Origin: a virus
Taxonomy: Duplodnaviria > Heunggongvirae > Uroviricota > Caudoviricetes
DNA length: 64,000 nt
IMG/VR virus record: IMGVR_UViG_3300028559_000005
Reading direction: 5' to 3' (one strand)
Within the stretch, counting starts at the first letter, position 1, and each line of letters starts with the position of its first letter. The notes below the pieces were generated by a model, which did no database searches, was not told where the DNA came from, and saw nothing but the letters and a program-made list of their open reading frames with translations. Shown piece by piece: positions 1-20,842 of the stretch. The translations under genes were made by a program, and so were the position numbers.

Positions 1-1
1 T

Positions 2-487
2 CCAGTATGCACCTAACTGATCTTTTAACTGTGTGTCGCCCTGAAGGTATGCGTCGAATCCTGGTTTTAGTCCTTTTAAGAAACTATCACGGACTTGTTC
101 GAAATGTACTATGTCTGCCGCAGCAACTTCCTGTGTACCGGCTTGTGCTAAGTCTTTTTTGGTCCACCCAGCATCTATTAGATCCTGTATTTCTTCTTGT
201 TTTTGCTGAGCGAACTCATTAACAAAGTTTTCGGTAACAGCGTAATAGCTTGAAGCAGAATTGCCACCAGGGGCAAATTCATTTAATCGACTTCCTGCTA
301 CGCCTTGATCAACTTTTTTCTCTCGTGCCCTACGTTTGGAATAGTCAGTGTCGGCTGGGTTGTTTTTGTTCTTGGCAGGTGGTCGAGTACCTGCAATTCG
401 TTCTTCTTCACTCTTGCGACGAGTAAAATAATCATTGGCAGCAGAGCCTTCAACGACTGTGGGCTTGAAAAGATTCTCAATAATCAT
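2..487 (-). CDS. Partial CDS running off the window edge; modular putative head-cargo protein (not in the ORF track)
   Basis: My translation from ATG at 487 is open to the edge: MIIENLFKPTVVEGSAANDYF...QGVAGSRLNEFAPGG... It starts 1 nt after the stop of 489..1151 and has VVE/G and LNE/F linkers like neighbouring genes. Confidence 0.7.
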   Translation of the reverse strand, partial: MIIENLFKPTVVEGSAANDYFTRRKSEEERIAGTRPPAKNKNNPADTDYSKRRAREKKVDQGVAGSRLNEFAPGGNSASSYYAVTENFVNEFAQQKQEEIQDLIDAGWTKKDLAQAGTQEVAAADIVHFEQVRDSFLKGLKPGFDAYLQGDTQLKDQLGAYW

Positions 488-488
488 A

Positions 489-1151
489 TTATGCTTCTTC
501 TAAGTAATCTTGGCTGGGATCTTGCAACTGTGAACGACGATGTGCTCGAAACATCTCTACTGCCATTTCAGCTTCATCTAAGTCTCTAAACTTGCTGGGC
601 AATATACGGCCTTGATGGCGAATTTCAAATCCGCGACGTTGATCTCCCCAACACTCTAGACATGTGCCATCTTCTAATGTGATTGTTTTTACAGGACCAG
701 ATTCGCCTACACTAACTGGACTCATCATGGCAGTACCTGACATCATTGGCTCTTGGGATTCTTCCTGTGACTGTTCGTCGTATTCGTCTTGATCGTCGGC
801 CTTGGCAGGATTCTTATCTTGAATTTCTTGTTTGGCTTTTTGTTCCAGCTGGTCAAGATATTGTGTGAGATCCTTCTTGACTCGGCTTAACATGTCTTCG
901 TCGATCTCAGACATGCGTTCAGCCAATGCACTCCGAACAGGCTGAACACTATCGCCAACCATGTTTTTGCCTAATGGTTTCTTTTGATTATCACTGCCCA
1001 ATACTGGTGATACGTTTTCTGGCTTGAACAATGCAGGCAGTTGCGGCACTGACTTTTGTTGCTTGTTCAGCCCTTTTTTTACCGAGACGGGAGTAATGTC
1101 TGATTCAATTACGGCCAGACGTTTTAGTATGTTTGCAATATCATAGCTCAT
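489..1151 (-). CDS. Hypothetical protein (late cluster)
   Basis: 220-aa ORF with an ATGA overlap to the upstream gene; acidic linker; no recognised motif. Confidence 0.6.
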   Translation of the reverse strand: MSYDIANILKRLAVIESDITPVSVKKGLNKQQKSVPQLPALFKPENVSPVLGSDNQKKPLGKNMVGDSVQPVRSALAERMSEIDEDMLSRVKKDLTQYLDQLEQKAKQEIQDKNPAKADDQDEYDEQSQEESQEPMMSGTAMMSPVSVGESGPVKTITLEDGTCLECWGDQRRGFEIRHQGRILPSKFRDLDEAEMAVEMFRAHRRSQLQDPSQDYLEEA

Positions 1152-1588
1152 GCTCGTTCAACCTTCAAATAACTGTTCAGTTGCCAACGATACTTGCCAT
1201 GAGCACTAAGTCGTTCTGCAATAAAATTAGCAATACCTTGTTGATTTTCTTCGTTGGCTACCGCAAAGCAAGCGTTCAGTACATCTAGCATTTGATTGTT
1301 GTTGGCGTACAATTCTTCCAACATTAATCGAGCACGTGGAATTTTGGTCTGTCCAGAAATCTCTGTGAGTTCACTATAACGTTCTAAACTTCCCGGAGCA
1401 TACTCACCTAGATAGCGAATGTATTCTGCTGTGGGATCTAGTGCTGAGTAAGCATCTTCGTAAATGTTTTGAAAGAAATCATGCAATTCTCCAAAGTCGG
1501 GACCTTCTACATTCCAGTGAAATTGATGTGCTTTTAAGTAGTAGGCAAAATTAGTTGCCAGGAGTGTTTTTAAATTGTCCGCGAGCAT
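1148..1588 (-). CDS. dps: Dps/ferritin-like DNA-protecting protein
   Basis: Dps signature in LATNFAYYLKAHQFHWNVEGPDFGELHDFFQNIYE...AEYIRYLG. Start moved to MLADN at 1588. Confidence 0.9.
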   Translation of the reverse strand: MLADNLKTLLATNFAYYLKAHQFHWNVEGPDFGELHDFFQNIYEDAYSALDPTAEYIRYLGEYAPGSLERYSELTEISGQTKIPRARLMLEELYANNNQMLDVLNACFAVANEENQQGIANFIAERLSAHGKYRWQLNSYLKVERA

Positions 1589-1763
1589 GCTTGTTCCTTT
1601 TGTATTCCTTGGGCGTGTTAGGCGTCGGGTCCGTTGTGTATTTACCACTCAGCATAGAACCGCCTTGTCTTGTTTGTATACCCATTGGTTGAACTAACAC
1701 TGCCATAGAGCCAGTGCTGGAGCTGCCTGCGCTTGCGTCTTCCATTATTTCATGTGCTCTCAT
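1551..1763 (-). CDS. Small hypothetical protein with CTS-like N-terminus
   Basis: Starts MRAHEIME/DASAGSSS. Confidence 0.6.
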   Translation of the reverse strand: MRAHEIMEDASAGSSSTGSMAVLVQPMGIQTRQGGSMLSGKYTTDPTPNTPKEYKRNKHARGQFKNTPGN

Positions 1764-2052
1764 GTTCAATCCTTAACAATGTGTGGTTCACCATGTGTGC
1801 GCCCGGCGGTCCATCTTTGATGCATGTATTGCTCACTTGAATGCGCCCTTGTGCCGGCGGAACCAATTCTCGGCGTAATTCATATTCGCCCGGCGGTGCA
1901 TAAATCTGTATTAGTTCTTCTAGATACTCTTCTCGCCAGACCCATGTACGTTCTGAAAACAATTCTCCGCCTACATATAGTCTATAATTAGGTGACGGTC
2001 CGTCCCAGTCGACTGAAACATCAGCATTGATCAACACAAACTGTGCAGTCAT
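1750..2052 (-). CDS. Hypothetical protein
   Basis: 100-aa ORF in a tightly packed operon. Confidence 0.55.
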   Translation of the reverse strand: MTAQFVLINADVSVDWDGPSPNYRLYVGGELFSERTWVWREEYLEELIQIYAPPGEYELRRELVPPAQGRIQVSNTCIKDGPPGAHMVNHTLLRIEHEST

Positions 2053-2342
2053 GTGTCGGATATGTCAGGAGTAACTGCTCGGTGCAGACGATGTCTTGAT
2101 GCAGAACTTAAAAGATGATCATCGTCAGAGTCTGGTTCATATCCACCATAACGACTCGGGTCGGCACGATGTTTAATTCCAGTTTTGAGTTTTTCTATTT
2201 TGCCCATTTTAACTGGGGTTTTGTCTGGTGGAGAATTTGGACCACGGCGACCACTGTTAGAATTACCAGCTTCCTCAACATTCTTTTCGCCTAGGAATCC
2301 CATACCTTCACGTGGGTGATTAAATAGTTCGTATATCAACAT
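2049..2342 (-). CDS. Hypothetical protein with weak CTS-like start
   Basis: Starts MLIYELF and contains NVEE/A; overlaps neighbours. Confidence 0.55.
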   Translation of the reverse strand: MLIYELFNHPREGMGFLGEKNVEEAGNSNSGRRGPNSPPDKTPVKMGKIEKLKTGIKHRADPSRYGGYEPDSDDDHLLSSASRHRLHRAVTPDISDT

Positions 2343-2344
2343 GA

Positions 2345-2671
2345 TTATTCAGTCCAGGGCAGTGGAAGTATTACCACTGGAGGGATAATCTGCAAGTCAA
2401 TTTGATCTTGTACTTGTAACTCTACAGCGTTTTTATCGACACCATTGGTCCAGATCCAGTCAAGCACTTGTTGTTGTGTTAGATCAACGTAAGGTGTAAA
2501 AGATGCAGAAGCCAACGGAATCTCGCAGGCGGCGAGTGCTGATACCCGGGCGCTGTAGCCGTCTTGTACACCACTGCATGCCCAATAAACTCCAAATACC
2601 ACATCCGGATAACCGTCTGCTTCGGGATAGCATGTCATCTCAGTCACGGTCCAATTGATTGTTGCGGCCAT
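2345..2671 (-). CDS. Small phage protein, possibly virion/tail-associated
   Basis: INWTV...VV..VYW.C...YVDLTQQQVLDWI pattern, which I recall from aquatic phage proteins near tail genes. Confidence 0.45.
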   Translation of the reverse strand: MAATINWTVTEMTCYPEADGYPDVVFGVYWACSGVQDGYSARVSALAACEIPLASASFTPYVDLTQQQVLDWIWTNGVDKNAVELQVQDQIDLQIIPPVVILPLPWTE

Positions 2672-2694
2672 TGTAATTTACTTTCTAAAATCTG

Positions 2695-3339
2695 TTATGC
2701 CATCTGCGTGGAAGGAGACAATGCTGCGGCCAGGGCCATACGTTTTTGTCTATGTGCGCCCGAACTTCGTTCATAGTATTGATCTACAATAGCAGCAGCA
2801 TCTTCTGCTGTTTTTGCACTCTTCAATCTTTGCCCTGCGTTTGCTTCCTTGTTGTTCAATTCGTACTGTACAAACTCTAATTGGTCTTGTAAGCTAGAAT
2901 CTTGTAATGGTTTACGCATTGCATTAGCAAAATCTTGTTGTCGTGATCCGCGCCATTGTGCAATACCATATGCTTTCTCGCCGGGATTCCATGCAGCAGG
3001 ATTGAGATTTTGACCTGATTCTGCTTGTAGGTTGGCCACTAGTCCAGCAGCTTGTTCAGGTGACCATCCTTGTTGCATAAAGTAGTCTAGAGCAATTTTT
3101 GCATTGCCTGCTGTGCCACCACCTGCTCTATTAGATGGTCCAGACATACCAGATCCAGGCAAACGTATTCGAGATCCAGGCTGAATATCATTAGCACTAG
3201 CAAACTGTGGATTTTGCCACATGATGCCATCTACTGTGGTATCGTAGGACTTTGCTATGTTCGGCAAGGAATCTCCAGATCTCACAGTATAGATATTGTT
3301 AGAGCTAGTGGCTTCAGACAAGAAATCAAATAACTTCAT
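2695..3339 (-). CDS. LysM plus phage-tail-lysozyme-type muralytic protein with CTS-like N-terminus
   Basis: LysM (YTVRSGDSLPNIAKSYDTTVDGIMWQNP...IQPGSRIRLP); lysozyme-like AAGLVANLQAES...AYGIAQW...R; starts MKLFDFLSE. Confidence 0.8.
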   Translation of the reverse strand: MKLFDFLSEATSSNNIYTVRSGDSLPNIAKSYDTTVDGIMWQNPQFASANDIQPGSRIRLPGSGMSGPSNRAGGGTAGNAKIALDYFMQQGWSPEQAAGLVANLQAESGQNLNPAAWNPGEKAYGIAQWRGSRQQDFANAMRKPLQDSSLQDQLEFVQYELNNKEANAGQRLKSAKTAEDAAAIVDQYYERSSGAHRQKRMALAAALSPSTQMA

Positions 3340-3340
3340 A

Positions 3341-4303
3341 TTACCCTTTTAACATGGTAGACATGCGACGCATTTGATCCACGCTGTATTCAAAATTTGA
3401 TTGTTTACTAGTGCTTTCTTGAAGTTTTGCCGGTGCTGTGCCGCCTGCTGGTATACCTAATTTTGCTCTACCTTGATCAATTACAGAAGGCTGTGTTGCT
3501 ATTCTTTGACTAACTGACTGATTAGTTGGATTTGCTGGTGCCGCTGGTTTTGTTGGAGTAGCAGCCTGACCCGTCATATTAGCGGGCGGCGCCTTGGCGT
3601 AGCTGCTACGCTCTTGAGCCGAGGCTGGTCCTCTGAGGTTAGCTGCAGGGCCGCCAGGTTTTTGTGCAGACAAAATAGCGCCTGCTGTGGTAGGCCCAAT
3701 AATACCGTCAGCCGTTAAACCGTTAGCTGTTTGAAATTTCTTAATAGCATCAACATTTGGTTTATTATTCGTTAATAGTCCCATTCTAGATGCATACGCA
3801 GCGATTGCAGGGGACATTGATTTATTAGCAGCTGGCTTAGCTGGACTTGCTGCTTGTGTAGGTGCTGCTGGTGTAGATGCGGCAGCATTGACTGCCGCTG
3901 CTTGTCCCATACTCATATCTGTAGCACTTGCAGCAGTATCGGCAGCATTGACTGCCGCTGCTTGTCCCATACTCATATCTGTAGCACTTGCAGCAGTATC
4001 GGCAGCATTGACTGCACCTGCTTGTCCCATACTCATATCTGTAGCACCTGCAACAGCGTCAGCCTTGTCAGCGGCAGCCTGTGCTGCTGCCTCTTCACCG
4101 GGATTACCTACTCCAGTTGCAGAACTTGTTGCTGCTGGTTTACCTTTATTTGGTGCTCGCATGGCAATGTAAGGGTCATTGATGTCGGGTTTGCCGCCAC
4201 CGCGGGTGTACCATGCTTGATCTTCTGGACTCATGGCTGCAAATTTGGCAGCATCGGCACCTTGGTACGGATTTGCTTCTCTTAAAAATTCTATTGATCT
4301 CAT
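3341..4303 (-). CDS. Ala/Pro-rich protein with peptidoglycan-binding domain and CTS-like N-terminus
   Basis: PG_binding_1-like AIKKFQTANGLTADGIIGPTT; starts MRSIEFLRE. Confidence 0.75.
   Translation of the reverse strand: MRSIEFLREANPYQGADAAKFAAMSPEDQAWYTRGGGKPDINDPYIAMRAPNKGKPAATSSATGVGNPGEEAAAQAAADKADAVAGATDMSMGQAGAVNAADTAASATDMSMGQAAAVNAADTAASATDMSMGQAAAVNAAASTPAAPTQAASPAKPAANKSMSPAIAAYASRMGLLTNNKPNVDAIKKFQTANGLTADGIIGPTTAGAILSAQKPGGPAANLRGPASAQERSSYAKAPPANMTGQAATPTKPAAPANPTNQSVSQRIATQPSVIDQGRAKLGIPAGGTAPAKLQESTSKQSNFEYSVDQMRRMSTMLKG
3880..4047. repeat. 60-bp tandem repeat, about 2.8 copies, in frame
   Basis: The unit ggcagcattgactgccgctgcttgtcccatactcatatctgtagcacttgcagcagtatc recurs at 3881, 3941 and 4001. 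It encodes ATDMSMGQAAAVNAADTAAS. Confidence 0.95.
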
Positions 4304-4341
4304 GTGATATTCCTTTATGAATGACCTATGCTTTATTTATT

Positions 4342-4983
4342 CTATTTGCCCTGTGCTGCCAATCTTGCACCATTGTTAAAACTGTTGCTGTGACTGGCAG
4401 CATTTCTGTTGCCACGTGCTTTTGACCATGCATAACCAGCTCTGTGCCCAGAACAATCTTTGGTGCAAGGCGACCCCAAAAATGATAATTCATCCAACTC
4501 TTGTTTTCCAGTGTATCGTTTAATTATGGACATTGATTCCTGATCATTCAACAGAGATGCTAATCCAGGATGTAGTGGGCGTGGCCAGTCGCCAAACTCT
4601 ACCCATTCAGATCCTTGAGTTTCCCAATTTAACATTGGTTTAAATTCGTGAGCTACTATGGCTAAAAAATTGTAGTATCTAAATCCCGACGGATGCCTGA
4701 ACACATACAACGGGATCAGTTTAAGTGGGCCGTTATACCCTGCTTCTTCTTTGACTTCTCGTTTGACAGCATGTGCTGGATTTTCACCAGCGTCGATTGC
4801 ACCGCCCCATGTTCCCCAGGTGTTAGGTTGCTCCACTTGTGATGATCTATGAGCTATACAAATCCGATTGGTATCGGCTGCCAGGAACAAACAACCAGCA
4901 GCTTGCTTGCCCCAGAATCCTGTTTTCTCCAAAGCATCACGATGTTCTTTATCTGACTCAGTCACAAATTCGGTTGCTCTCAT
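4342..4983 (-). CDS. NUDIX hydrolase with CTS-like N-terminus and a C-terminal Cys-containing module
   Basis: Nudix box GGAIDAGENPAHAVKREVKEEAG; starts MRATEFVTE; module after ELDE/L reads GSPCTKDCSGHRAGY. Confidence 0.85.
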   Translation of the reverse strand: MRATEFVTESDKEHRDALEKTGFWGKQAAGCLFLAADTNRICIAHRSSQVEQPNTWGTWGGAIDAGENPAHAVKREVKEEAGYNGPLKLIPLYVFRHPSGFRYYNFLAIVAHEFKPMLNWETQGSEWVEFGDWPRPLHPGLASLLNDQESMSIIKRYTGKQELDELSFLGSPCTKDCSGHRAGYAWSKARGNRNAASHSNSFNNGARLAAQGK

Positions 4984-5459
4984 TTGGCATCTCCAAAGAT
5001 TGGTCCACCGACATACTGACCATTCTGACTTAACACACCATTGCGTAGATTGTTGATAATGTTATCAGTGATGTTTCTGCGACGGAAATGCGGCAAAAAA
5101 ATATGTGTTTCTACAGGACGATCGCCCTGCTCTGCTTGGATAGCATACATCCTGTGACGCCCGTCATGATCACGCACCTTGGCTTCTAAATTGAAATCAT
5201 CGTTCTCCCAAGCTTCAGGAACTGCTATGGTTAAAAACGGTGCTCCAAACCCTTTATCATTGATCTGTCGGCGTAGATATTGTATAGTTTCTTTTTCGTC
5301 AGGAGAGTTAACATCCAAGGGCAAGCTGAGTTTGAGGAATGTGCTGGGTCGCATGACTGTGCGTAGACCAAAGTAATCTACATCAGCATTGTGCGGAACA
5401 GCACCGAGACCTTGCCGATTGTCTATCTTTAGTTCCGTTATGAATTCCTTTGATCTCAT
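4980..5459 (-). CDS. ParB/Srx-like domain protein with CTS-like N-terminus
   Basis: DHDGRHR resembles the ParB/Srx DGxHR motif; starts MRSKEFITE. Confidence 0.5.
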   Translation of the reverse strand: MRSKEFITELKIDNRQGLGAVPHNADVDYFGLRTVMRPSTFLKLSLPLDVNSPDEKETIQYLRRQINDKGFGAPFLTIAVPEAWENDDFNLEAKVRDHDGRHRMYAIQAEQGDRPVETHIFLPHFRRRNITDNIINNLRNGVLSQNGQYVGGPIFGDAK

Positions 5460-5659
5460 GTGTCTATCCTGTGTACATTGGTCACTATGCTGTCTTTGCC
5501 GTATTGAGCTTGCAGTAATAATCGAGCCATGGCAGGTGACTTGGCAAATATAGCCACATCTATACTGGTAGTATACGAAGGATTTTTGACCCGCACAGAC
5601 GCACTATACACATGAAATCCCGGAAGCAAGTCTTCACAGAGAAATTCTGTTGCTCTCAT
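5456..5659 (-). CDS. Small hypothetical protein with CTS-like N-terminus
   Basis: Start moved to MRATEFLCE at 5659 (TGATG overlap with the upstream stop). Confidence 0.65.
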   Translation of the reverse strand: MRATEFLCEDLLPGFHVYSASVRVKNPSYTTSIDVAIFAKSPAMARLLLQAQYGKDSIVTNVHRIDT

Positions 5660-7368
5660 CAGCAGTTCCACTTTCTCAACGCTAATGCTTTGCGTGTGGG
5701 TTTGCCATTGGGTTTTTTCATTGGCCCTTTGACTCCGCCCATCCTGGCACAGAATGATTTACGACGCTTGGCTGCTTTTGATCCTGGCTTGAGTTTGCTG
5801 GGCTTGGTAGTAACTGCCATTTGTAATTTTGAGCCTGGATTCTCTCTACGATAGCTAGCAACACCTTTGGCATTGAGACCGCCCTTTTTGCTCTTACCTG
5901 CGCTTCTACGCCAAGCTGCTGTTTCAAGAATGATTTCTTCATCGGTGAAGAAGTTGAATATGTCTTCAGTAAGACCACGATCAGCCATGGCCTGTTCAAA
6001 GTCATCAAATATTGCATGGGCTTGTTCTAGGCTGTATACGCTTTCTGTTACACCTTCCTCTACACCCGACTGCATCTGTTGTTTGACTGCACGAGCAACA
6101 TCTCCCGCCAATGCGCCAGGGTCATTATCGCCACCGTAGTTGAGCACACTCATGATTGCATTGTGAATCACACGGTCATCTGCACGACGAGCCATATTGG
6201 GATACATGCGCTCAAACTCAGCATACACTTGATCAGCTAGGTCATCGTATTCACCGTTGAAGCCTTCATCCAGGCCATCTGCTTGTACAGCCCCTTCGCC
6301 GTCGGCATCAAAAGCTACCATTTCTACTTTGGGCCACATACGTGCAGGCACATACAGAATACCCGAAGTTTCGTCATGATCGATCTGGTCGCCAAAGCGA
6401 GCCATTACTGCATTATATGCCCGTTCACTGTTAACGCTAAAACCCACAGTGTCCGTATCGTCAATACCGCTGTATCCGCCTTCCGCCACACCTTGCTTCT
6501 TGAGAATATCCAGTGCGTGTTTTTCCATCTGTTTTTTGGTAATAGGTTTACCGGGTGCTTCCTTACCTTTGAAATAATCAGAACCTTTTTTATCTCTTGA
6601 ACCATAGGTGCTGTGACTTACTTTGCCATCACGACCGGGTTGTGGTGCTGATTTGTCCATTTCATTCAAGCCTTCCGCCACACCTTGCTCACTTGCTTTG
6701 GCTTTGGCTTCGGCCCTGGTACGACTGTATCCCCGTGCTGTTGCTTCTCGTTCTTGGTTAGGATATATAGATATTGCAAACATTTTTCCATCTTTAACAA
6801 AGTACCAATCTGTTGGATCTAGATCGTGTCTTTCGTCATCACCGCGATTGAACGCTCCCCTTACTCCGCGGAAAGGCCTGCCTCTGCCTTCCGCCACACT
6901 TTCTTTTTTGGCAGTCTTTGCAGCATCTTTCCAGGCCTGTGCTGTGGGGGCCTTGGGGCTGTCGGCATCTCTACTGGTACCGGCCTTCTTGCGCTTGTTT
7001 ACATTGTAGTATAACCCTTTGTTCTCCTCTGAGATACTTTCGTTAGGCACACAGTTTCTTACCTGCTTGCCAGTCACAGCTGACTTTTTTGTGCCTTCTG
7101 CATGTTTTCCTGGCCAGCACTTGGTGTAACCATTGCTATCTTTCTGACCCTTTTTGATCTCCATGATATTGCCGTGTGTTTTGCACATACCACAGTCTTC
7201 ACACACCATTTCCATCACAACACTTTCGTTGTGTTTCTTCTTGCCAGCACAATGAGCACGTTGCGAAAAGCCTTTTGGATGAGAGCAATTGATACTGCTT
7301 TTGTATTTTTGACTCCAGCCTTCATCTAATTTTTTGATTTTTCCAGTTATAAATTCATTTGATTTCAT
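5659..7368 (-). CDS. 569-aa modular protein of short basic and acidic domains separated by xxE linkers
   Basis: Starts MKSNEFIT. Modules include WSQKYKSSINCSHPKGFSQRAHCAG, KCWPG, GLYYNVNKRKKAG and AWRRSAGKSKKGGLNAKG...SFCARM...ALRKWNC. Repeated QGVAEG/VEEG linkers. Confidence 0.7.
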   Translation of the reverse strand: MKSNEFITGKIKKLDEGWSQKYKSSINCSHPKGFSQRAHCAGKKKHNESVVMEMVCEDCGMCKTHGNIMEIKKGQKDSNGYTKCWPGKHAEGTKKSAVTGKQVRNCVPNESISEENKGLYYNVNKRKKAGTSRDADSPKAPTAQAWKDAAKTAKKESVAEGRGRPFRGVRGAFNRGDDERHDLDPTDWYFVKDGKMFAISIYPNQEREATARGYSRTRAEAKAKASEQGVAEGLNEMDKSAPQPGRDGKVSHSTYGSRDKKGSDYFKGKEAPGKPITKKQMEKHALDILKKQGVAEGGYSGIDDTDTVGFSVNSERAYNAVMARFGDQIDHDETSGILYVPARMWPKVEMVAFDADGEGAVQADGLDEGFNGEYDDLADQVYAEFERMYPNMARRADDRVIHNAIMSVLNYGGDNDPGALAGDVARAVKQQMQSGVEEGVTESVYSLEQAHAIFDDFEQAMADRGLTEDIFNFFTDEEIILETAAWRRSAGKSKKGGLNAKGVASYRRENPGSKLQMAVTTKPSKLKPGSKAAKRRKSFCARMGGVKGPMKKPNGKPTRKALALRKWNC

Positions 7369-7392
7369 TTAGTTCACCTTTTTCTAACAGTT

Positions 7393-8478
7393 TCATTTGT
7401 TTTTTGCTCTTCCAGCTTTCATATTGGCCAACCAGTGTGCCATGCGTTGTTTTTCACCAGAACTGTTCTTGGCAGTTTTTCTCAAACTACTTACACTGGC
7501 TTTGGTATTTACTCCCACACGTTTGGCCAGACCCTTGCGTCCAGGATTACGGCCGTCAGCAAAGTTTTCGTCAACCGAAGACTCATTGGATGTTGCAACA
7601 GGTTGTTTGGCCTTGTAGATATCTTCCCATTTGTCTGAAATAGCATTCTTTAATTCCAGCGTGGATTTAAAATTATTGTCTTGCATATACTTAATTATCC
7701 ACACAGCACTAGCACGGTCTCCTGAATCAGGCTTGCGAGCATTGCTTAGATCCACGCTGAGATTTTGATCTTCTGATGGATTACCATAGTACCGCATGGT
7801 CTTTAACGCACGTTTTGCTCTATCACTTAGATGTGCTTCGTCGCTCTTGGTAATTAACTCAATCCAGGGCTTTACAAAGTCTGTGGGCTTGCGGGACGAT
7901 CCAGCTGGTGTTGGTCCACGTAATACATCACGGGATTGGCCTGGTATCTGTGCTCGACGTTTGTTCAGCAATCGCCATGCTGCTTCGTCTGTGTAGAAAA
8001 ACACAGGTAAGCCTTGTTGCTTGGCTGTGATCAGGATCTGTCGTGTTTCTGGACTGCGATATTCATCTTGTTCTTTGAGCAACACATGAACTTCAGTCAC
8101 AGGAGTGATTGGAATAGTGGGCTCTTTGCTAAACACACGGTCTTCTGCTTCTCTGGTTCTTGTACCATTGCTGTGTAACCATGCACGGTCCCAGTAGTCA
8201 ATGGGTTTCACAATGTATCGAGAGTTAAACCAGTCACCATTGAGTTTGAACATCACAGCGCCTGATCCCACCCAGCGATGATAATCGCCAGTTATTGTTC
8301 GTGTCAAACTAAGAAAGTATGGATATCCAGCAGGAGCATACTGTTCTTCGCTGCGATTGCCGGTCACGCTGGCCAATTCAAAGTTGCCGGATTGCAGTAT
8401 TCTTAACCCAGCTCTGATACTGGTGTAATGAAACAATACATCAGTTGCTCGTTCAATTAAAAATTCCGTTGCTCTCAT
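7393..8478 (-). CDS. Putative ADP-ribosyltransferase-fold protein with CTS-like N-terminus and a basic C-terminal module
   Basis: VLFHYTS...YFLSLTR...REAEDR gives an H / S-x-T / E-x-E arrangement like ART folds; starts MRATEFLIE. Confidence 0.5.
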   Translation of the reverse strand: MRATEFLIERATDVLFHYTSIRAGLRILQSGNFELASVTGNRSEEQYAPAGYPYFLSLTRTITGDYHRWVGSGAVMFKLNGDWFNSRYIVKPIDYWDRAWLHSNGTRTREAEDRVFSKEPTIPITPVTEVHVLLKEQDEYRSPETRQILITAKQQGLPVFFYTDEAAWRLLNKRRAQIPGQSRDVLRGPTPAGSSRKPTDFVKPWIELITKSDEAHLSDRAKRALKTMRYYGNPSEDQNLSVDLSNARKPDSGDRASAVWIIKYMQDNNFKSTLELKNAISDKWEDIYKAKQPVATSNESSVDENFADGRNPGRKGLAKRVGVNTKASVSSLRKTAKNSSGEKQRMAHWLANMKAGRAKNK

Positions 8479-8843
8479 TATACATACCTTGCTAGTTCAT
8501 CTTCACCTAAATCTTGTATGCGATTGGGCGGGATTTTAGTTGTGGAGAAGTACCATCCGTGGTCATATGTCAATGGAATACCCGTCACATCAATTTGCAA
8601 CAATGTCAATGGATCATCGCTACCCTCTGACTTGGCGTACATCCATCCACCGACCATACTTAGTTCTCTTTGTAACTTGACCTTATCACCTTCGTCTACA
8701 ACCATAAATGCTTTGCCATCATACGGATCTAGCCCAGCATATAGAATTTCTTCTGCGTTTTCAGTACTGGTAATATGGTACGCAGTTTTAAACTCATGGT
8801 CATGATGTGTCCTTGATTCAGTGACAAATTCAGTTGCTCTCAT
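8478..8843 (-). CDS. Small putative ART-fold protein with CTS-like N-terminus
   Basis: AYHIT...EEILYAGL...LLQIDV...IPPNRI pattern of small H-x-T ART/Tpt1-like domains. Start moved to MRATEFVTE at 8843. Confidence 0.45.
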   Translation of the reverse strand: MRATEFVTESRTHHDHEFKTAYHITSTENAEEILYAGLDPYDGKAFMVVDEGDKVKLQRELSMVGGWMYAKSEGSDDPLTLLQIDVTGIPLTYDHGWYFSTTKIPPNRIQDLGEDELARYV

Positions 8844-11800
8844 TTGGGTTCCCATTGCATACTTTTACTACCTTTAACAGTAGGAGTAAACCCTTGACCT
8901 CTGTAGAACTTGGTTAATTTACTTTGACTCACTTGTCCTTTGTCCCAAGGAAACAGTGTCAAGCTGATGCCATCTTCTCTTGCCATGGCTTGTAGTTCTT
9001 GCATGGCACGTGACCCAACACCTTGACGTAGCGGATATGCTTGAATCCATTTGACTTCAACTGCGCCGCGCTTGCTAAAGCTAGGAACAAGTTCAAACAT
9101 AGCAAACTGTTGGTCATCGCCTTTGCCCCAGACCATAACGTGATTGTTCTGCATGGTGTATGGATACTTTGCGTAGACTCGTTCAATCCATGCCTGTGCA
9201 GCATCATTGTTGCCTAGTTTGATTCTTATTGGCTCTTCTTCTTCGGCTACATCTTTCATTAGATGTTTAGCATCGCCGGACTTCTTCCAAGCATCCCACA
9301 TGGCCTTGCCAGGCGGCAATTGATTTCTACTTGGTACAATAGTGTTACCCAACATTCTCACATACGCATAGATGTTACGTGCTATACCGCGGCCTTGATA
9401 TTCAAGTTTCAAGCTGGTAACTGCTGACACTAGACCATTTTTGCTGGGTCTAAATTTTGCAAGACCTATCTGTTGATAATTGTCGTCTAGCACTTTGACT
9501 TGAAAATATTCTTTACCATTTATTTCAATCCCAGTGGCACGATATGTCAGCCCATCAAAAATTTGGGTGTCGTTGAACGCTGGATTGAAAACATCTGGAT
9601 TGATAGTTTCATTTAAGTTGTTGGCCATTACTTGTGGTAAGAAACTGGCGGCAATGTGTTGGCAAGTGTTAAAAATGTCAGCATTATCAGTGACCTGCAG
9701 ATTGAATGGATAGTCTGTGGTAGGATGCTGTGTGGGGTCTTGCCACCCAGCATAACATTTTTCAATACCAAAGTCAGCTAACAAATCAGTGCAACTCTCT
9801 CCATACCTCTCATCCATGTCATGCACACAAGGACTCAATGTAGTGACCATGATGGCATTGGGACCAATACGACCGTGACGTTTGAGATGCTGGTCTATGG
9901 CCACTCGTTCAGCATGGCGTCGTGTTCCGTTGAGCCCAGGCAAGTTGATAGCATAAGTGTGATTGTTTTTGTTATCAATCAAACAAGCAGCCACACGTCC
10001 ATACTTTTCTGGATCAGTCTCATGACCACGATGTATCATGTTGATGCACTTTTTCAGCACATTATCTAGTTTACCAAGTTTTGTGATCTCTTGGCTTTCA
10101 TCCATATCTTCTTCACCAGGCTCGTCTAGGTCGTGTATGGGCAAGCCAAGGCGTTTGAGCTTGTGACTGTACATGTTTTCTAGCTCTTCGCTGCCAAACG
10201 CCAACACAGTATGCGGCGGGCCTTGATTGTAATGAGACTTGTCGGCTTGATCAAGATCGCTAATGTCTTGTCCCAACTGATACCAATCTTGGGTGTCGCT
10301 CACATCCACTTTGATTGTGCCAGCGGGCATTTTGGGAGGTGTTTCAGGACCAGTTGGTTTTTGATTGCCTAGAGCATCCAGGTCACGACGTAATCGTTGT
10401 TCTAACACTGTGATGTTTTCTGACACTGATTGAGAACGTAGTCTCACTGAGAAGTTACTGGCATCCACTTCTGGATTTGCCTGCATTGCAGTAGCCACCC
10501 ATTCTTGACCTCGACGCCAGGCTTCTGTTTGATTTGCTGCCTGTATTACAAATACTGGTTGATTGGAAGATCTATTGTATACTTCCCACTGTGTTTGTGC
10601 CATTGGGATATCTAATTCAACGTCTTCTACTCCTGGAATTGGGGTGGATGTGTATTGGTATTGTTGTTGGCTTGCTGCAACACCCATCTCTGGTACTACT
10701 GTAACTCCAGCCTGCATACGCCCAGGATTACTACGCATCCAGTTTATGGCCACACGGTTGGCATCACTCTGTACATTGCCTACTCCCGAGAAGCGATGTA
10801 TTTCTTGACCGTCCGGATTCAAGATCAACCAGTTGCCAGTGAATGTTTGCTGACCTTGACCCGGACGAGTTAAAGTTTGCGGTATGCCAACGTCAACAAT
10901 GCCACCTTGTGCTGCATCTGAATTATTGCCCTGGCGGGTACGAACACCGTACAATTCAGGAGCTTCGCCACGCATGCCTAACGCCAAACGTGCTTCTTGT
11001 TCAGCTTCGGGTCTACTGGTATTGCTCAACTCTCTCACAGTAGAGTTGTCGCTGATTCTATAGATTTCCCATGGACCTGGGCCAGTGGGCACCAAGTTGC
11101 GTGGCTGTCCTTCGCGTGGTACATTTTGTGTGCTAACGAATGCATTTGATGATCGCGCTGGCACTGTCGACGCCCGGAACAGGTGAGAACGGCCAGCGGT
11201 GTTGCCAAATATATCTGGTCTTGCTTCTCCAGCAGCTCTTATAGCGTTTAGCTCAGATGACGCACGAATTTGTATTTCTTGCCCAGGATTACCTTGTGGG
11301 CTTACATACCAGATTGGTTGTTCAGTCTGTTGTGGTTCAATTTCACGCACTTCAATGTCAGTTATCATACGAGAATTTTGTTCACGACCTTGAGTTATGA
11401 ACTGTTCAGCAGCCTCACGACTTGGGAATCTACGCAACACATTGTTGTCAGACTGGCCAGGAGCTCTAGCAAAGCGGTTCATGTCATTCATCCAAATGCC
11501 CCAGTTGCCTGTACTTGGTTGTGCGGCAGATTGTGGGCCAGGTTGTTGCTGATCACCACCACGGGCAACCACAGTGCCAGCACGATCAACTAAACTAAAG
11601 TCATGTGGATTATTTTCCCCTGAAACAAACTGTCTAAACTTTTGTACAGCGTCTTCTTGACTTGATGCTGTGATCGATGATCTATTGTAACCGGCTCGAG
11701 CATCATAAACGCTATAGGACAATGATGGCTTCGGATCCTGATATGGTCGTAGCGGTTTTGCCTGTAGAGTGTTCCGTGCGCTGGCCCAGTCTGGGTAGTT

Positions 11801-14800
11801 GCCTGGTTCTATAGCCTTGGCGATGGCTTCTTCCTTGCTAGAAGCAACAATTTCAATGCTGGCAAAATATCCAGGACGACTCACATCCCACCAATATTTT
11901 TGTCCCTTTGGTGTCTTGCCTTTGGCAAGATTACGGGCGAGATTCTGTTGCTCTAGTTCTTGAAAAGTTGCTTTTCTAAAGTCTTTGATGGCCTGTTGCG
12001 TTTCTTTGCTTAGTTTGTCGCCGACTTCTTTGCTATTGCCCTGCAACGATACCATGTACTTGGCAAACTCTTGAATCATATCACCATATTCGTCCTTGGT
12101 ACCGTTAGGATTCAACAGTTTGTACAGCTTCTTGAGATATTCTTGGCGATACTTTTCAGGATCCATCGCAGCGTCCAGGGCCACAGTAAATCGTAATAGG
12201 GTATCTTCAATCTTGCTGAAGTTTGAATCCAACCAGTCGCCACCCGGACTCCGGAATTCAATGTATCCTGTCTTGGTATTGATACTGGTATATTTTTCTG
12301 TAGTGCCTGTGTGAATGGCCTTGGTGGCAATGTCTTCCATGTGCTCACGCATCTTGTCCATGACCTGCGGAGCAATATCAGGATTGCGTTTCAGCATGGT
12401 TTTAATTTTGCCAATTGCTGACTTGGCATAGTTATTGCCTGAACGTCCAAACAGTTCTAGCACATATTCATCGCCCATGAGCAGGGCCAGTTTGACATAG
12501 TCCAGTTTGTCAAGACTGTAGTTGGGTACTGAAATGTTGATATGCAAGCCAGTGCTGTCATTGGTATAGCAACCAGACTTGTCTGCCCAAGCCTTGACCT
12601 TGTTTAGATCTGAAATCATTTCATCTATGGGCATAGGCGGACTAACAAATTCTAAACCTTCGTCGCCAGGGTTGTCGCCTTCTAAACTGCCGTCAGGTTC
12701 CACAACATAGGTACCTGCTTCACGACGGCCGCCATGGTAATTTCTACTGGCGTTCACAGGTTTACCCATGTAACTGGAGAATTCATCAGCCACTTGATCT
12801 ATATCCATGTCACCGTCGTTGCCCTCATTAGCGTCAGTGTAATAGGGCCATTCAATATCAAAGTTGCTTTCGATGTCACTCATGGTTTGATATTTGTCAT
12901 CCAAGAAACTGCCTTCATCGTACTCGTCTCGTTGTTCTTCTGCAAACGCTTCAAATGCATCATTGAAGACACGGCCTTGATCTTCAAAAGCTTCCAGCAC
13001 AAACTGTTCTTGTAATTCATCAAGTCTGGCACTCAGCAGTTGAGAGAAGTCTTCGCTCTCTTGTGGCAAGTCAGGATTGGCATCCATGATTTCGTCACGA
13101 GCTTGTAGCATGGCTTCATCACGATCAAACAAGTCATTAACGTTGACAAAGTCACGCATGTAATCTACTCCATCGCGTGTCCAAGCTTCAGCAGTTTGTT
13201 CCTGCTGCCATTCCTCGTACTCGTTTTGTATTTCTTCCATTAGGTCATCTACTGCACGGCGTCCATTGTGGTCACCGTCATGGAAAAAGTCTCGAATGTC
13301 ACTGAAGCTTCTGGTACGTTGATCCTGATCGTAGTCTGGTTCCCAGTCAGGTTCTTGTTCATCGACCCCAACATCGGGCACAATCATTTCAAATTCCATG
13401 CCTGCCTGTGCGCCTGTTTGTGCTGCTAACTGACGCAGATTGGTGCTGGTCATCTTGATTTCAAACAGATCTTTCTCTTTGAACTCTCGCAACATCTTGT
13501 TTAAACCGGCTGTGAGTAATGCAGGATGACCTTGTGAATCTGTTTGTAATCCAAGTTTGTTGGCTTCCTTGCCCACAGCACCTGGACGCACATCTCGGGT
13601 CAAGGCCATGACAAATCTTGGATCGCGTGCCTGTGCCTTTGTGGGTATGTATCCTGACGCTTCTTCCAGTGTGACCCCATCAAACATTTCAGGCTGTTCT
13701 TCAGCCCACTGTCGCATGATACGGCCAGCCATGGCGTTGGCTTGGTCTTCCCAAGGGCTACCAGTTTCACCAGCATCTATAGGCAGGGGATTTCTTTCAT
13801 CCTGCTGACGATGTGTCATCTCATGGGCCATGGTGCGAAGTATATCCAACACATGGCGTCCCGCGGTGGCCAAGATCAGTGTGTTGCTTTCTGGTTCGTA
13901 TTGACCAAAGCTACCGTTCTCTTGACTCCATTCTGGTGTTGTTTCCAAACGCAATCTAGGTGGATTCTCTAATTTAAGTTTATCTACACAACTGGCATAG
14001 AAACGATGTAGGATCTTTTTCAAATGGTCAAGTTCTACACTTTCATCCACTTGTTCTGATTCAGTACCAGCAGGGTGATCTTGGCCAGCATACGCAGTAC
14101 CTGGATACCAGTAATCACGCATGCCGTAATTGACTTTCTTTCTGGCAGCAGGCTTACGATTTAAACTCAACTCACGATCTTGTATTGCTGTCTTGGCATC
14201 TTTTAATTTGCCAATGCAACCCATATTTCTCAACAATTTAAATGCAATGTTCTCGCAGCCAAACTCACCATTCTTTTCCAGGCCAGTTTGGCGCATTGTT
14301 TTGATCTTGTCCCACAGCTGATTCACAGCATCTGCATTGCCGGACTTGATAGCTGAATGTATTCTGGCATCAAGATCAGCTGTTTTGTGTTGTACACAAG
14401 AGTCATCTATGCTAGCACGACGGCGCTGTGGAACTTGTACCCAGTCACCATTCTTTACGCTGTAAATGCCTTGACTCACATGCTTTTGATCACTGGGCTG
14501 CACATACAGTTCCACTGGAACGCCAGCAATCTTTATGTCATGCTCGGCATTATACTGATATTTTTTTGCATTGAACAGTTCTTGATACACAGGATCGTCA
14601 GGCATGTCCACCACAAGGTGTAGATCAATGTCTGAATGGCGAGTATAAGAATAGGCAGCATTGCTACCTGATATGGTAATGTCCTGAATGTTGAGATCAT
14701 CAACACCCAGGAATTCTTGAAAATTTGACGCAATTGCCAGCAACTTGTCACGCACATCAGGTAACAAGTGCTCGTCTGACCCCCACAAACGGGGGTTCAA

Positions 14801-14860
14801 ACGTTGATGGAATTTTACAGCATCGGCGAGATTAAAGTTGTCAAGATCATGGAAATTCAT
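8840..14860 (-). CDS. 2006-aa polyvalent protein: Pol-beta-type nucleotidyltransferase, HExxH metallopeptidase, amidoligase (COOH-NH2 ligase), repeat region, Zn deaminase, two GNATs
   Basis: GSNAAY..SDIDLH (about aa 65); AHEMTH (aa 346); GMEFEM (aa 487)...EPDGSL...GLEFVSPP...STGLHINIS...IEFRSPGG; RHAE (aa 1649)...LSPC...C; EYQGRGIA; LRQGVGS. Confidence 0.8.
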   Translation of the reverse strand: MNFHDLDNFNLADAVKFHQRLNPRLWGSDEHLLPDVRDKLLAIASNFQEFLGVDDLNIQDITISGSNAAYSYTRHSDIDLHLVVDMPDDPVYQELFNAKKYQYNAEHDIKIAGVPVELYVQPSDQKHVSQGIYSVKNGDWVQVPQRRRASIDDSCVQHKTADLDARIHSAIKSGNADAVNQLWDKIKTMRQTGLEKNGEFGCENIAFKLLRNMGCIGKLKDAKTAIQDRELSLNRKPAARKKVNYGMRDYWYPGTAYAGQDHPAGTESEQVDESVELDHLKKILHRFYASCVDKLKLENPPRLRLETTPEWSQENGSFGQYEPESNTLILATAGRHVLDILRTMAHEMTHRQQDERNPLPIDAGETGSPWEDQANAMAGRIMRQWAEEQPEMFDGVTLEEASGYIPTKAQARDPRFVMALTRDVRPGAVGKEANKLGLQTDSQGHPALLTAGLNKMLREFKEKDLFEIKMTSTNLRQLAAQTGAQAGMEFEMIVPDVGVDEQEPDWEPDYDQDQRTRSFSDIRDFFHDGDHNGRRAVDDLMEEIQNEYEEWQQEQTAEAWTRDGVDYMRDFVNVNDLFDRDEAMLQARDEIMDANPDLPQESEDFSQLLSARLDELQEQFVLEAFEDQGRVFNDAFEAFAEEQRDEYDEGSFLDDKYQTMSDIESNFDIEWPYYTDANEGNDGDMDIDQVADEFSSYMGKPVNASRNYHGGRREAGTYVVEPDGSLEGDNPGDEGLEFVSPPMPIDEMISDLNKVKAWADKSGCYTNDSTGLHINISVPNYSLDKLDYVKLALLMGDEYVLELFGRSGNNYAKSAIGKIKTMLKRNPDIAPQVMDKMREHMEDIATKAIHTGTTEKYTSINTKTGYIEFRSPGGDWLDSNFSKIEDTLLRFTVALDAAMDPEKYRQEYLKKLYKLLNPNGTKDEYGDMIQEFAKYMVSLQGNSKEVGDKLSKETQQAIKDFRKATFQELEQQNLARNLAKGKTPKGQKYWWDVSRPGYFASIEIVASSKEEAIAKAIEPGNYPDWASARNTLQAKPLRPYQDPKPSLSYSVYDARAGYNRSSITASSQEDAVQKFRQFVSGENNPHDFSLVDRAGTVVARGGDQQQPGPQSAAQPSTGNWGIWMNDMNRFARAPGQSDNNVLRRFPSREAAEQFITQGREQNSRMITDIEVREIEPQQTEQPIWYVSPQGNPGQEIQIRASSELNAIRAAGEARPDIFGNTAGRSHLFRASTVPARSSNAFVSTQNVPREGQPRNLVPTGPGPWEIYRISDNSTVRELSNTSRPEAEQEARLALGMRGEAPELYGVRTRQGNNSDAAQGGIVDVGIPQTLTRPGQGQQTFTGNWLILNPDGQEIHRFSGVGNVQSDANRVAINWMRSNPGRMQAGVTVVPEMGVAASQQQYQYTSTPIPGVEDVELDIPMAQTQWEVYNRSSNQPVFVIQAANQTEAWRRGQEWVATAMQANPEVDASNFSVRLRSQSVSENITVLEQRLRRDLDALGNQKPTGPETPPKMPAGTIKVDVSDTQDWYQLGQDISDLDQADKSHYNQGPPHTVLAFGSEELENMYSHKLKRLGLPIHDLDEPGEEDMDESQEITKLGKLDNVLKKCINMIHRGHETDPEKYGRVAACLIDNKNNHTYAINLPGLNGTRRHAERVAIDQHLKRHGRIGPNAIMVTTLSPCVHDMDERYGESCTDLLADFGIEKCYAGWQDPTQHPTTDYPFNLQVTDNADIFNTCQHIAASFLPQVMANNLNETINPDVFNPAFNDTQIFDGLTYRATGIEINGKEYFQVKVLDDNYQQIGLAKFRPSKNGLVSAVTSLKLEYQGRGIARNIYAYVRMLGNTIVPSRNQLPPGKAMWDAWKKSGDAKHLMKDVAEEEEPIRIKLGNNDAAQAWIERVYAKYPYTMQNNHVMVWGKGDDQQFAMFELVPSFSKRGAVEVKWIQAYPLRQGVGSRAMQELQAMAREDGISLTLFPWDKGQVSQSKLTKFYRGQGFTPTVKGSKSMQWEPK

Positions 14861-17860: not shown

Positions 17861-18553
17861 TTATGGTCGTTTTTGCACTTGTACGGTTTTACGAGTTAGC
17901 CCAGGGCATAGCATTGCCAGCATGGTAATATGCTTGAGATCATTGTGTTCTACAAAATAATGTTCCCGGCTCCATGATGAATGCGGTTTTGTTCTACCCC
18001 ATCGGTAACCTTGTAGTATAGTATCAGTGAACCATTTTTCAGTAACAGGACTGGCCACGAGATCTGGAGCCTGATGGCTGATCCAATTCCACACTGCTTG
18101 TTTTTTATCTGTGGACAGCTTCTTTTCTTTAAGATAAGTTCTGTAAGGATATTTGGGTTGATTGTTTAACATGACAACATCCCTGGAATACGCAAGTACT
18201 GCTTGTTTCATAGTGGATTTTGTTGGATAATTCCTGTACATTGTCTCAACGTCTTTGATGTCATTGGTGTACACATGAAATCTATTTTGCCCATAGGTGC
18301 GATGAATGTATGCACTGCGAAGATTTTCTAATACGTCCACTGCATGCATTATGTTTTGTTTGGTCAATTCGTCAGTCACTGGGTGTCCAACTGACAAATT
18401 ATATTGATCACGTCTATGTAACCGTTCCAGGATCTTTGTGAGAGAAAGATTGTTCAACAGCCACGCACCATCAATATCAAAACTTATTGCATATTCATAC
18501 TTTCCAAAATAAAGTGATCCGCGTGGGTCACACTGTAAATAGGGTAGTGACAT
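17861..18553 (-). CDS. Hypothetical protein
   Basis: 230-aa ORF overlapping the end of clpA. Confidence 0.6.
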   Translation of the reverse strand: MSLPYLQCDPRGSLYFGKYEYAISFDIDGAWLLNNLSLTKILERLHRRDQYNLSVGHPVTDELTKQNIMHAVDVLENLRSAYIHRTYGQNRFHVYTNDIKDVETMYRNYPTKSTMKQAVLAYSRDVVMLNNQPKYPYRTYLKEKKLSTDKKQAVWNWISHQAPDLVASPVTEKWFTDTILQGYRWGRTKPHSSWSREHYFVEHNDLKHITMLAMLCPGLTRKTVQVQKRP

Positions 18554-20795: not shown

Positions 20796-20842
20796 GTGGA
20801 CAGTATACTATAGATCTCAATAGAGATCAACCTTTCACGTAC

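Follow-up and report, generated by a model that had tools for sequence, protein, structure and literature searches.

Why should a run of phage genes with unrelated products begin with nearly the same nine residues? The question is raised by IMG/VR virus record IMGVR_UViG_3300028559_000005, a linear contig of 153,873 bp from which a stretch of 64,000 nucleotides (bases 28,692-92,691; referred to as the window, to which all coordinates refer unless stated otherwise) was analysed. Close to the start of the window, between positions 1763 and 8843 on the minus strand, which carries almost all genes of the contig, lies an array of genes whose products share an N-terminal tag, M-R-A-T-E-F-[ILV]-x-E, or more widely M-[RK]-x-x-[ED]-[FI]-[ILVM]-x-E in eight of the genes. 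A preliminary description of this DNA had compared the tag with the capsid targeting sequence (CTS) of phage T4 and proposed that it loads diverse effectors into the phage head for injection. The completeness of the contig was estimated by CheckV to be ~44%, and it is therefore a fragment of an uncultured freshwater jumbo phage of roughly 350 kb. Our results support the capsid-targeting interpretation, all of the in silico tests that were run having come out in its favour, and we consider it likely that the tag is the T4-type capsid-targeting propeptide of a large clade of uncultured jumbo phages.

All of the N-termini quoted in the preliminary description were found at their places on the minus strand. 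A six-frame translation of the whole contig, searched with the strict motif M[RK]xx[ED][FILMVY][ILVMF]x[ED], gave eight matches, all of which were the starts of minus-strand open reading frames (ORFs) within window positions 1763-8843. A position-specific score matrix (PSSM) trained on the tags of other contigs only, and used with a threshold of 6 bits, selected nine of the contig's 4,212 Met positions, namely the same eight and MKSNEFITG at 7368 (9.9 bits), a degenerate tag in which the final Glu is missing. No match of 6 bits or more was internal to an ORF or lay elsewhere on the contig, and every match at this level in G000, G004 and G009 was an ORF start. The array therefore holds eight firm tags and one degenerate tag rather than ten or eleven as first counted, and two N-termini that had been listed as weaker tags, MLIYELF (2342) and MIIENLF (487), fell below the threshold. 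With a loose motif lacking the Met, 19 matches at starts were obtained versus 15 internal ones, and the E-F pair occurred in none of the internal matches. The tag was not found on replication, chaperone or other genes elsewhere on the contig, which answers the refuting condition named in the preliminary description, namely that the motif be equally common in early and replication genes. At the nucleotide level, the 18-nt 5′ end ATGAGAGCAACNGAATTT, which four genes had been said to share, was indeed present in exactly four copies in the window (at 4983, 5659, 8478 and 8843) against a chance expectation of 0.01, and a fifth copy with two mismatches was found at 4303. The sharing of the tag is real and far beyond chance.

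The tag is also widespread. Its 18-nt start was detected in at least 118 IMG/VR stretches and opens an ORF in most of them, and in the flanks of these matches further tagged ORFs were found by the peptide alone, many in arrays of 2-8, the densest flank having up to eight tagged ORFs in 7 kb (locus L016). At least 156 distinct tagged proteins were collected in this way from more than 100 uncultured jumbo-phage contigs. When the first 12 residues were removed, 156 tagged proteins fell into 54 clusters, 36 of them singletons, and the cluster representatives had a mean column identity of 6% with only Met1 and Glu9 in common. Pfam families among the tagged proteins include NUDIX, two lysozyme types, GH19, C5 DNA methylase and several DUFs, and most of the proteins belong to no family. 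Within the 156 tags, Phe was found at position 6 in 82%, Ile, Leu or Val at position 7 in 97% and Glu at position 9 in 98%, and the residue that follows (position 10) was Ala, Ser or Gly in 49%. Complete genomes had 3-12 matches to the tag pattern, compared with 0-1 for a reversed control, and the smaller tag-bearing contigs examined (32-115 kb) each represent 8-30% of a far larger genome. No published description of this tag was found in the literature. One recurrent peptide, M-[KQHN]-Y-[ND]-E-M-V-V-E (in G001, G003, G004, G005 and L033), was rejected as a tag, since it lies 96-110 codons inside a conserved ORF and is a false positive. In genome G004, a giant protein of ~4370 aa (a 4374-codon frame on the plus strand) starts MARIRSIDFLPE, which is tag-like with an offset of three residues.

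To what known signal does the peptide correspond? The T4 internal proteins IPII and IPIII start MKTYQEFIAE (read from NC_000866), the published CTS of T4 (PMC8442874), which is removed by the prohead protease gp21 (Mullaney and Black 1996, reviewed in PMC9026906, PMC8442874). The likeness that had been drawn to these proteins holds, as MKTYQEFIAE, read in the T4 genome, contains the tag core E-F-[ILV]-x-E, with Phe7, Ile8 and Glu10 of T4 corresponding to Phe6, Ile7 and Glu9 of the tag. In mutants of the T4 CTS, targeting depended mainly on residues 4 and 7, whereas processing depended on residues 8 and 10; Asp at position 10 blocked cutting and left targeting intact (PMC9026906). In both systems a short N-terminal peptide is carried by unrelated proteins, shares an identical E-F-I-x-E core, ends in [ILV]-x-E and is followed by a small residue. 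The present tag differs in having nine residues rather than ten and in lacking the Tyr4 position of T4; its cargo also consists mostly of enzymes rather than small basic proteins. A relaxed N-terminal motif applied to the whole T4 genome matched six ORF starts, those of IPII, IPIII, gp24, Alt, Inh and gp61.1, of which Inh is annotated as a minor head protein and gp61.1 is uncharacterised. Such an N-terminus is thus close to diagnostic for prohead proteins in T4. As a separate observation, gp61.1, a hypothetical protein of 54 aa encoded beside the primase gene (NC_000866 18966-19130, L195), starts MKTFKEFIKE, a near-copy of the IPII/IPIII CTS.

The preliminary description also invoked a prohead protease, and its gene was found, although not on the window's contig. 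A single Pfam S77 (T4 gp21-type) protease is encoded in each of the five tag-bearing genomes of 91% completeness or more (318-525 kb; E between 1e-24 and 1e-28) and also in G009 and G010, so that all seven tag-bearing contigs of at least 55% completeness have it. The proteases of G001-G005, G009 and G010 matched PF03420 above the curated cut-off (E 1e-24 to 2e-30), and none of the seven lacks the GE[VIL]DHP or the GVSSRGSG motif. The head module of G009, the only one that was read and in which the protease lies at L144 5010-5651, runs from the portal through a small core protein, an acidic protein, the protease and a coiled-coil scaffold to the major capsid protein (MCP), which matches the T4 order gp20, gp67, gp68, gp21, gp22 and gp23. 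The presence of the S77 family and this gene order are further points of likeness to the T4 CTS system. The phages themselves are unlike T4, being uncultured freshwater phages of 320-525 kb whose MCPs are nearest those of PA5oct-like jumbo phages and not those of Straboviridae. The tag-bearing genomes form one clade, within which MCP identity is 80-86%; against the MCPs of cultured jumbo phages, among them PA5oct, Vibrio phage 2.275.O and Serratia phage BF, identity is 61-66%. Megablast of window positions 1-9000 against cultured phages gave no matches. Approximately 40 residues before a GVQPM motif, all eight clade MCPs and the PA5oct MCP have L-x-E followed by Ser or Asn, and on the same side of this motif T4 gp23 has its maturation site FLTE|AEIGG. 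The conservation of L-x-E in these MCPs gives indirect support to the predicted cleavage of the tag after its terminal Glu.

Similar N-termini were observed on proteins of the prohead core. The conserved proteins at the gp67 and gp68 positions (G009 L144 5658-6994; L119-L125) have tag-like starts that end in [LI]-x-[ED], among them MNKFEKLIE, MKLFEMYD and MILNELYE, and the protease itself starts MALYLKEHL. Judging from these sequences, the tag may be derived from core-protein propeptides. In PA5oct, the relaxed motif matched two proteins. One of these, gp150, starts MKINDIITE, has its gene in the place of gp67 and carries the annotation 'structural protein, ESI-MS/MS'; the second, gp271, was not detected. 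The annotated detection of gp150 in virions is an experimental hint in favour of capsid targeting.

Is the conserved signal the peptide, or the DNA that encodes it? The shared 5′ end could mainly be a DNA or mRNA module with no role in peptide sorting, such as a recombination joint for cassette shuffling or a favoured translation-initiation region. In line with this, the four copies in the window share 17 of 18 nucleotides, and in 94 tags that had not been picked by a DNA pattern the codon usage of the first residues is biased, Arg2 being AGA in 78% of tags versus 22% genome-wide and Ala3 being GCA in 73% versus 50%. The codons at tag positions 5-9 in the same set, in contrast, follow genome-wide use (TTT/TTC 70/30, ATT/ATA/ATC, GAA/GAG 80/20), so that selection there acts on the amino acids; synonymous sites vary and the residues are fixed. 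The N in ATGAGAGCAACNGAATTT likewise stands for all four bases across the copies within the window, each of the resulting codons encoding Thr4. Gene-sized insertions and deletions, which a cassette joint would fit, do distinguish the arrays of close relatives. Genome G009, the closest relative of the window (~80% nucleotide identity over the aligned third of the window's contig, the first 67 kb), has a syntenic tag array and lacks most of the NUDIX gene, of which only the 3′ end of about 140 nt is kept (window 4482-4967 versus G009 153278-153325); the cargo of the array thus turns over by gain and loss among relatives of ~80% nucleotide identity. Recombination at the tag may contribute to such differences between the window and G009, including the loss of most of the NUDIX gene, and recombination of this kind has been proposed for the IP loci of T-even phages. 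A purely nucleotide-level module is contradicted by the synonymous variation and by the retention of [ILV]-x-E at the homologous place inside a polyvalent protein, where there is no start codon (see below), and we regard it as quite unlikely to be the main explanation.

The tag behaves as an addition to otherwise complete proteins. In the AF2 model of the 121-aa protein encoded at 8478-8843 (mean predicted local distance difference test score, pLDDT, 83), pLDDT stays below 50 for residues 1-13 and the fold begins with a strand at residue 20; the AlphaFold model of the 361-aa protein encoded at 7393-8478 has values under 50 at residues 1-6, and its first strand begins at residue 14. The tag is thus modelled as disordered and outside the folded domain. 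Homologues of the 361-aa protein without the tag are present in cultured phages (Salicola phage SCTP-2 and Dickeya phage JA13), and start directly with the LFHYTS core that is preceded by MRATEFLIERATDV in the protein of the window.

What cargo does the tag carry in this array? The 121-aa protein (8478-8843, minus strand, as are all genes of the array) has the tag MRATEFVTE|S (PSSM 26.8 bits) and a minimal domain of the ADP-ribosyltransferase (ART) superfamily, similar to KptA/Tpt1. The 361-aa protein (7393-8478), with the tag MRATEFLIE|R (25.6 bits), combines an ART-fold N-terminal domain similar to DarT and Tpt1 with a very basic C-terminal module (isoelectric point, pI, 9.8). Both had been called ART-like in the preliminary description, and the models provide support at the level of the fold: Foldseek against the PDB placed KptA/Tpt1 first for the 121-aa model (E 2e-4, template modelling score about 0.5), followed by DarT and toxin-type ARTs, and placed DarT first, with Tpt1 also matched, for the N-terminal domain of the 361-aa protein (E 8e-4). 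These matches are moderate, and Pfam finds nothing for either protein; both are assigned to the ART fold as putative members of the ADP-ribosyltransferase superfamily. A [FY]-H-x-T-[ST] motif is conserved at the first strand of the ART-fold cargoes. In an alignment of 26 sequences of the 121-aa family, Met1 and Glu5 are invariant and Arg2 is at least 90% conserved. The 121-aa family and the 361-aa protein are not called paralogues here, as profile comparison gave a probability of only 9%, although both models are ART-like. T4 Alt, an ADP-ribosyltransferase that is packaged in the head and injected, offers a parallel, being an ART-fold enzyme with a short N-terminal propeptide (MELITE...) that was recovered by the relaxed motif; the ART-fold proteins of the window, however, resemble KptA/Tpt1 and DarT and not the R-S-E clade of Alt.

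Further along the array, Pfam confirmed the NUDIX, LysM/lysozyme and peptidoglycan-binding assignments. The NUDIX hydrolase of 213 aa (4342-4983; MRATEFVTE|S, 26.8 bits) matched its family with E 4.8e-13 (49.7 bits against a cut-off of 21.1). An Ala/Thr-rich protein of 320 aa (3341-4303; MRSIEFLRE|A, 19.6 bits) has a peptidoglycan-binding domain (PG_binding_1, E 5e-6), and a 214-aa protein (2695-3339; MKLFDFLSE|A, 12.5 bits) combines LysM (E 1.5e-10) with a phage lysozyme (Phage_lysozyme2, E 1e-31). The 159-aa protein (4980-5459; MRSKEFITE|L, 21.9 bits) had been described as ParB-like; it has a DGRHR motif and a possible ParB/Srx-like domain, and ParB_N occurs in 26% of the members of its Atlas neighbour clusters, which gives a lead only, but neither a Pfam match (E ≤ 0.01) nor a PDB sequence match was obtained for it. 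The 67-aa protein (5456-5659; MRATEFLCE|D, 18.6 bits) has neither a Pfam nor a PHROG family, and PHROGs returned no family for seven tagged or neighbouring small proteins. The degenerate tag belongs to a basic mosaic protein of 569 aa (5659-7368; Glu9 replaced by Gly; pI 9.2) with a C-terminal DUF6321 domain (Pfam E 1.7e-21), and the syntenic protein of G009, with which it has the module KWSQKYKSSINC in common, carries the full tag MKSSEFITE.

At the far end of the array, a basic protein of 70 aa (1551-1763) with the divergent tag MRAHEIMED (10.1 bits) is encoded directly upstream of an untagged Dps/ferritin-like gene (1148-1588; Pfam Ferritin E 3e-20), which recurs beside tagged genes and was found in 17 of the tag loci retrieved. 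A frameshift fusion of the two was rejected, because the small ORF is conserved separately in several loci: it is a 70-aa ORF in G009, and tagged ORFs of 51-70 aa end at the Dps start codon in at least five loci (the window, L081, L039, L099 and L118). The two N-termini below the PSSM threshold belong to ORFs of 97 aa (2049-2342) and 162 aa (2-487), for which a tag is not supported.

Would such proteins work in the head or in the host? The peptide could be a prohead-core propeptide whose cargo acts inside the head, as DNA-condensing or charge-neutralising internal proteins, scaffold accessories or assembly enzymes. Many of the tagged proteins are mosaics of very basic Lys/Arg-rich modules, of which DUF6321 is one, and the very basic mosaic cargoes are probably DNA-binding. 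The likeness of their starts to those of the gp67/gp68-position core proteins (MNKFEKLIE, and MKINDIITE in PA5oct) and the recurrence of the Dps-like, DNA-binding protein gene beside the tags point the same way. NUDIX, ART-fold, methylase, GNAT and lysozyme cargoes, on the other hand, have no obvious job inside a capsid, and we think a purely in-head role unlikely. Neither does such a role exclude injection, since the T4 internal proteins are both associated with the DNA and ejected (PMC3012670). By analogy with these, the tagged enzymes would probably already be present in the virion and be injected together with the DNA. The mosaics are also noteworthy in themselves, as freely recombining assemblies of short Lys/Arg/Cys-rich modules (window 5659-7368 and 7393-8478; L092, L095, L099, L100, L107 and others), among them KWSQKYKSSINC..., DUF6321, ENFADGK...MKSGK and a Gly-rich WDRYN module. 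In T4-like cyanophages, a DUF6321 gene adjoins the small terminase gene (gp16), and the S-CAM1 protein starts MKSFKELRSDIRE; a literature search on DUF6321 found nothing.

A peptide of this kind could also be read by another machine, whether a modifying enzyme, a Clp/AAA+ chaperone of the phage, a secretion route or a tail docking site. The window does encode a ClpB-like double AAA+ chaperone (755 aa) adjoining a DnaJ (260 aa) at 18528-21625 on the minus strand. Among 91 tag-bearing loci, however, no untagged family occurs in more than 24, and in the complete genome G004 the tagged genes are not arrayed but scattered over seven places and so have no dedicated neighbour; a neighbouring modifying enzyme is therefore unlikely. 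The peptide has no hydrophobic signal-peptide character, and the cargoes are enzymes with intracellular targets and not adhesins. Recognition by another machine is thus, in our judgement, very improbable. Elsewhere in the window, a protein of 1522 aa (36117-40685, minus strand) has long collagen triple-helix repeats (Pfam Collagen, E 4.5e-50) and is probably a fibre or decoration protein.

The gene on the other side of the array bears on how the tag would be processed. This gene, which has a 4-nt overlap with the first tagged gene, encodes a protein of 2006 aa (8840-14860, minus strand) without an N-terminal tag. Pfam detected deaminase, amidoligase and GNAT domains in it, and its HExxH peptidase module is homologous to stand-alone proteins. 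With several unrelated conflict-type enzymatic domains in one polypeptide, it belongs by its domain content to the class of polyvalent proteins, for which self-processing by their own metallopeptidase domain has been proposed (Iyer, Burroughs, Anand, de Souza, Aravind 2017; PMC5512222). For several modules of the 2006-aa protein, homologues occur in other loci as separate tagged proteins, with alignments that extend into the tag. Thus MRATEFINE|EINPD (L077, L035) aligns with LNE|TINPD at polyvalent residues 1749-1751, and MRATEFITE|EHEPTRIKLGNND (L014) aligns with VAE|EEEPIRIKLGNND at residues 1871-1873 with 89% identity; for the HExxH module (L017), the boundary falls within one residue of QVDE273. 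One polyvalent boundary has Asp in place of Glu (LRRD1493). As there are 27 [ILVM]-x-E sites in the 2006 residues, an exact coincidence at a given position would be expected by chance in ~1.3% of cases. The orthologue in G009 keeps QVDE and LNE, and its third site is shifted by one residue.

These alignments support the view that the end of the tag is a predicted processing site, which would work with or without a preceding start codon, and suggest that the polyvalent protein may be cut at its [LV]-x-E linkers. It is probably, as far as the alignments indicate, a fused form of the same arsenal, cut at homologous linkers of this kind. We further propose, tentatively and with the balance of probability somewhat against it, that CTS-tagged genes and polyvalent proteins are interconvertible forms of one head-packaged arsenal, and that the prohead protease, and not only the protein's own metallopeptidase, cuts the linkers. 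A module would then move between the forms by gene fission and acquisition of the nine-residue tag, or by fusion with loss of the tag's first six residues. Cutting by the prohead protease and self-processing (PMC5512222) are not mutually exclusive. The repertoire is the same in both cases, as the ART, ParB-like, lysozyme, GNAT and zincin-type peptidase domains found here overlap that predicted for head-packaged polyvalent proteins, whose delivery with the DNA was also predicted (PMC5512222). The present case differs from that description in that the boundaries align with a prohead-protease-type site and the modules occur also as separate tagged genes. The window holds one of the tag's denser arrays, adjoining a polyvalent protein with which the tagged genes have modules and processing-type sites in common.

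Several observations weigh against the capsid-targeting interpretation. No head genes were detected on the window's contig, either with Pfam S77 or by tblastn with the MCP, scaffold, protease and portal of a relative, so that the link to the protease rests on relatives. Cleavage cannot be universal, since Glu9 is absent from some members of the 121-aa family and from the 569-aa protein of the window. Four cargoes are basic (pI 9.2-9.9) and the others acidic or neutral, unlike the classic internal proteins of T4. The strict tag pattern had no match in PA5oct, Vibrio phage 2.275.O, Serratia phage BF, Sinorhizobium phage Phosso or Xanthomonas phage XaC1; these five cultured jumbo phages have MCPs 61-66% identical to those of the clade, and the tag is therefore not general to this type of head. 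The excess of AGA and GCA leaves room for an RNA or nucleotide constraint on the start region, or for recent spread by recombination. As for late expression, the late-promoter sequence TATAAATA is rare and no common motif was found upstream of the tagged genes, most of which overlap the preceding gene.

With these points taken into account, we infer by analogy with T4 the timing, core binding, cleavage, packaging and ejection of the tagged proteins, together with the activity of every cargo. The proteins would be made while proheads assemble, and the tag would bind a scaffolding core like that of gp22, gp67 and gp68, around which the capsid shell would close and enclose the cargo. The gp21-type (S77) prohead protease would then cut after the terminal Glu, with Ile, Leu or Val at the P3 position. 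The peptide would leave, and the mature cargo would stay with the packaged DNA, enter the host with it and act in the first moments of infection, in passage through the wall, host takeover or counter-defence. The giant phages phiKZ, 201phi2-1 and SPN3US, in which the propeptides of head and ejection proteins are cut at S/A/G-x-E or A-x-E by gp21-like proteases (PMC5694885), are comparable in having many head-loaded proteins and processing after Glu, both of which are predicted in the present case. Their propeptides, however, are mostly longer than 100 residues with no single common tag, and have a small residue at P3, whereas P3 here is Ile, Leu or Val, as in T4.

Should the tag function as its T4 counterpart does, it would mark the proteins that are injected by a large clade of uncultured freshwater phages with genomes of 320-525 kb. 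A nine-residue motif would then suffice to list their first-strike proteins, including ART-fold proteins, NUDIX hydrolases, a methylase, GNATs, lysozymes and basic DNA-binding modules, most of which are unannotated, and the E-F-I-x-E core of T4 would be conserved far beyond the T-even phages. Comparison of scaffolds across clades that have the T4 capsid-targeting signal in common could help to find the receptor for it. The tag is in addition a candidate means of bringing foreign proteins into large capsids. For polyvalent proteins, the alignment of the tag with their linkers provides a concrete and testable processing rule, and should the two prove to be interconvertible forms, one sequence rule would predict the injected proteome of a large jumbo-phage clade.

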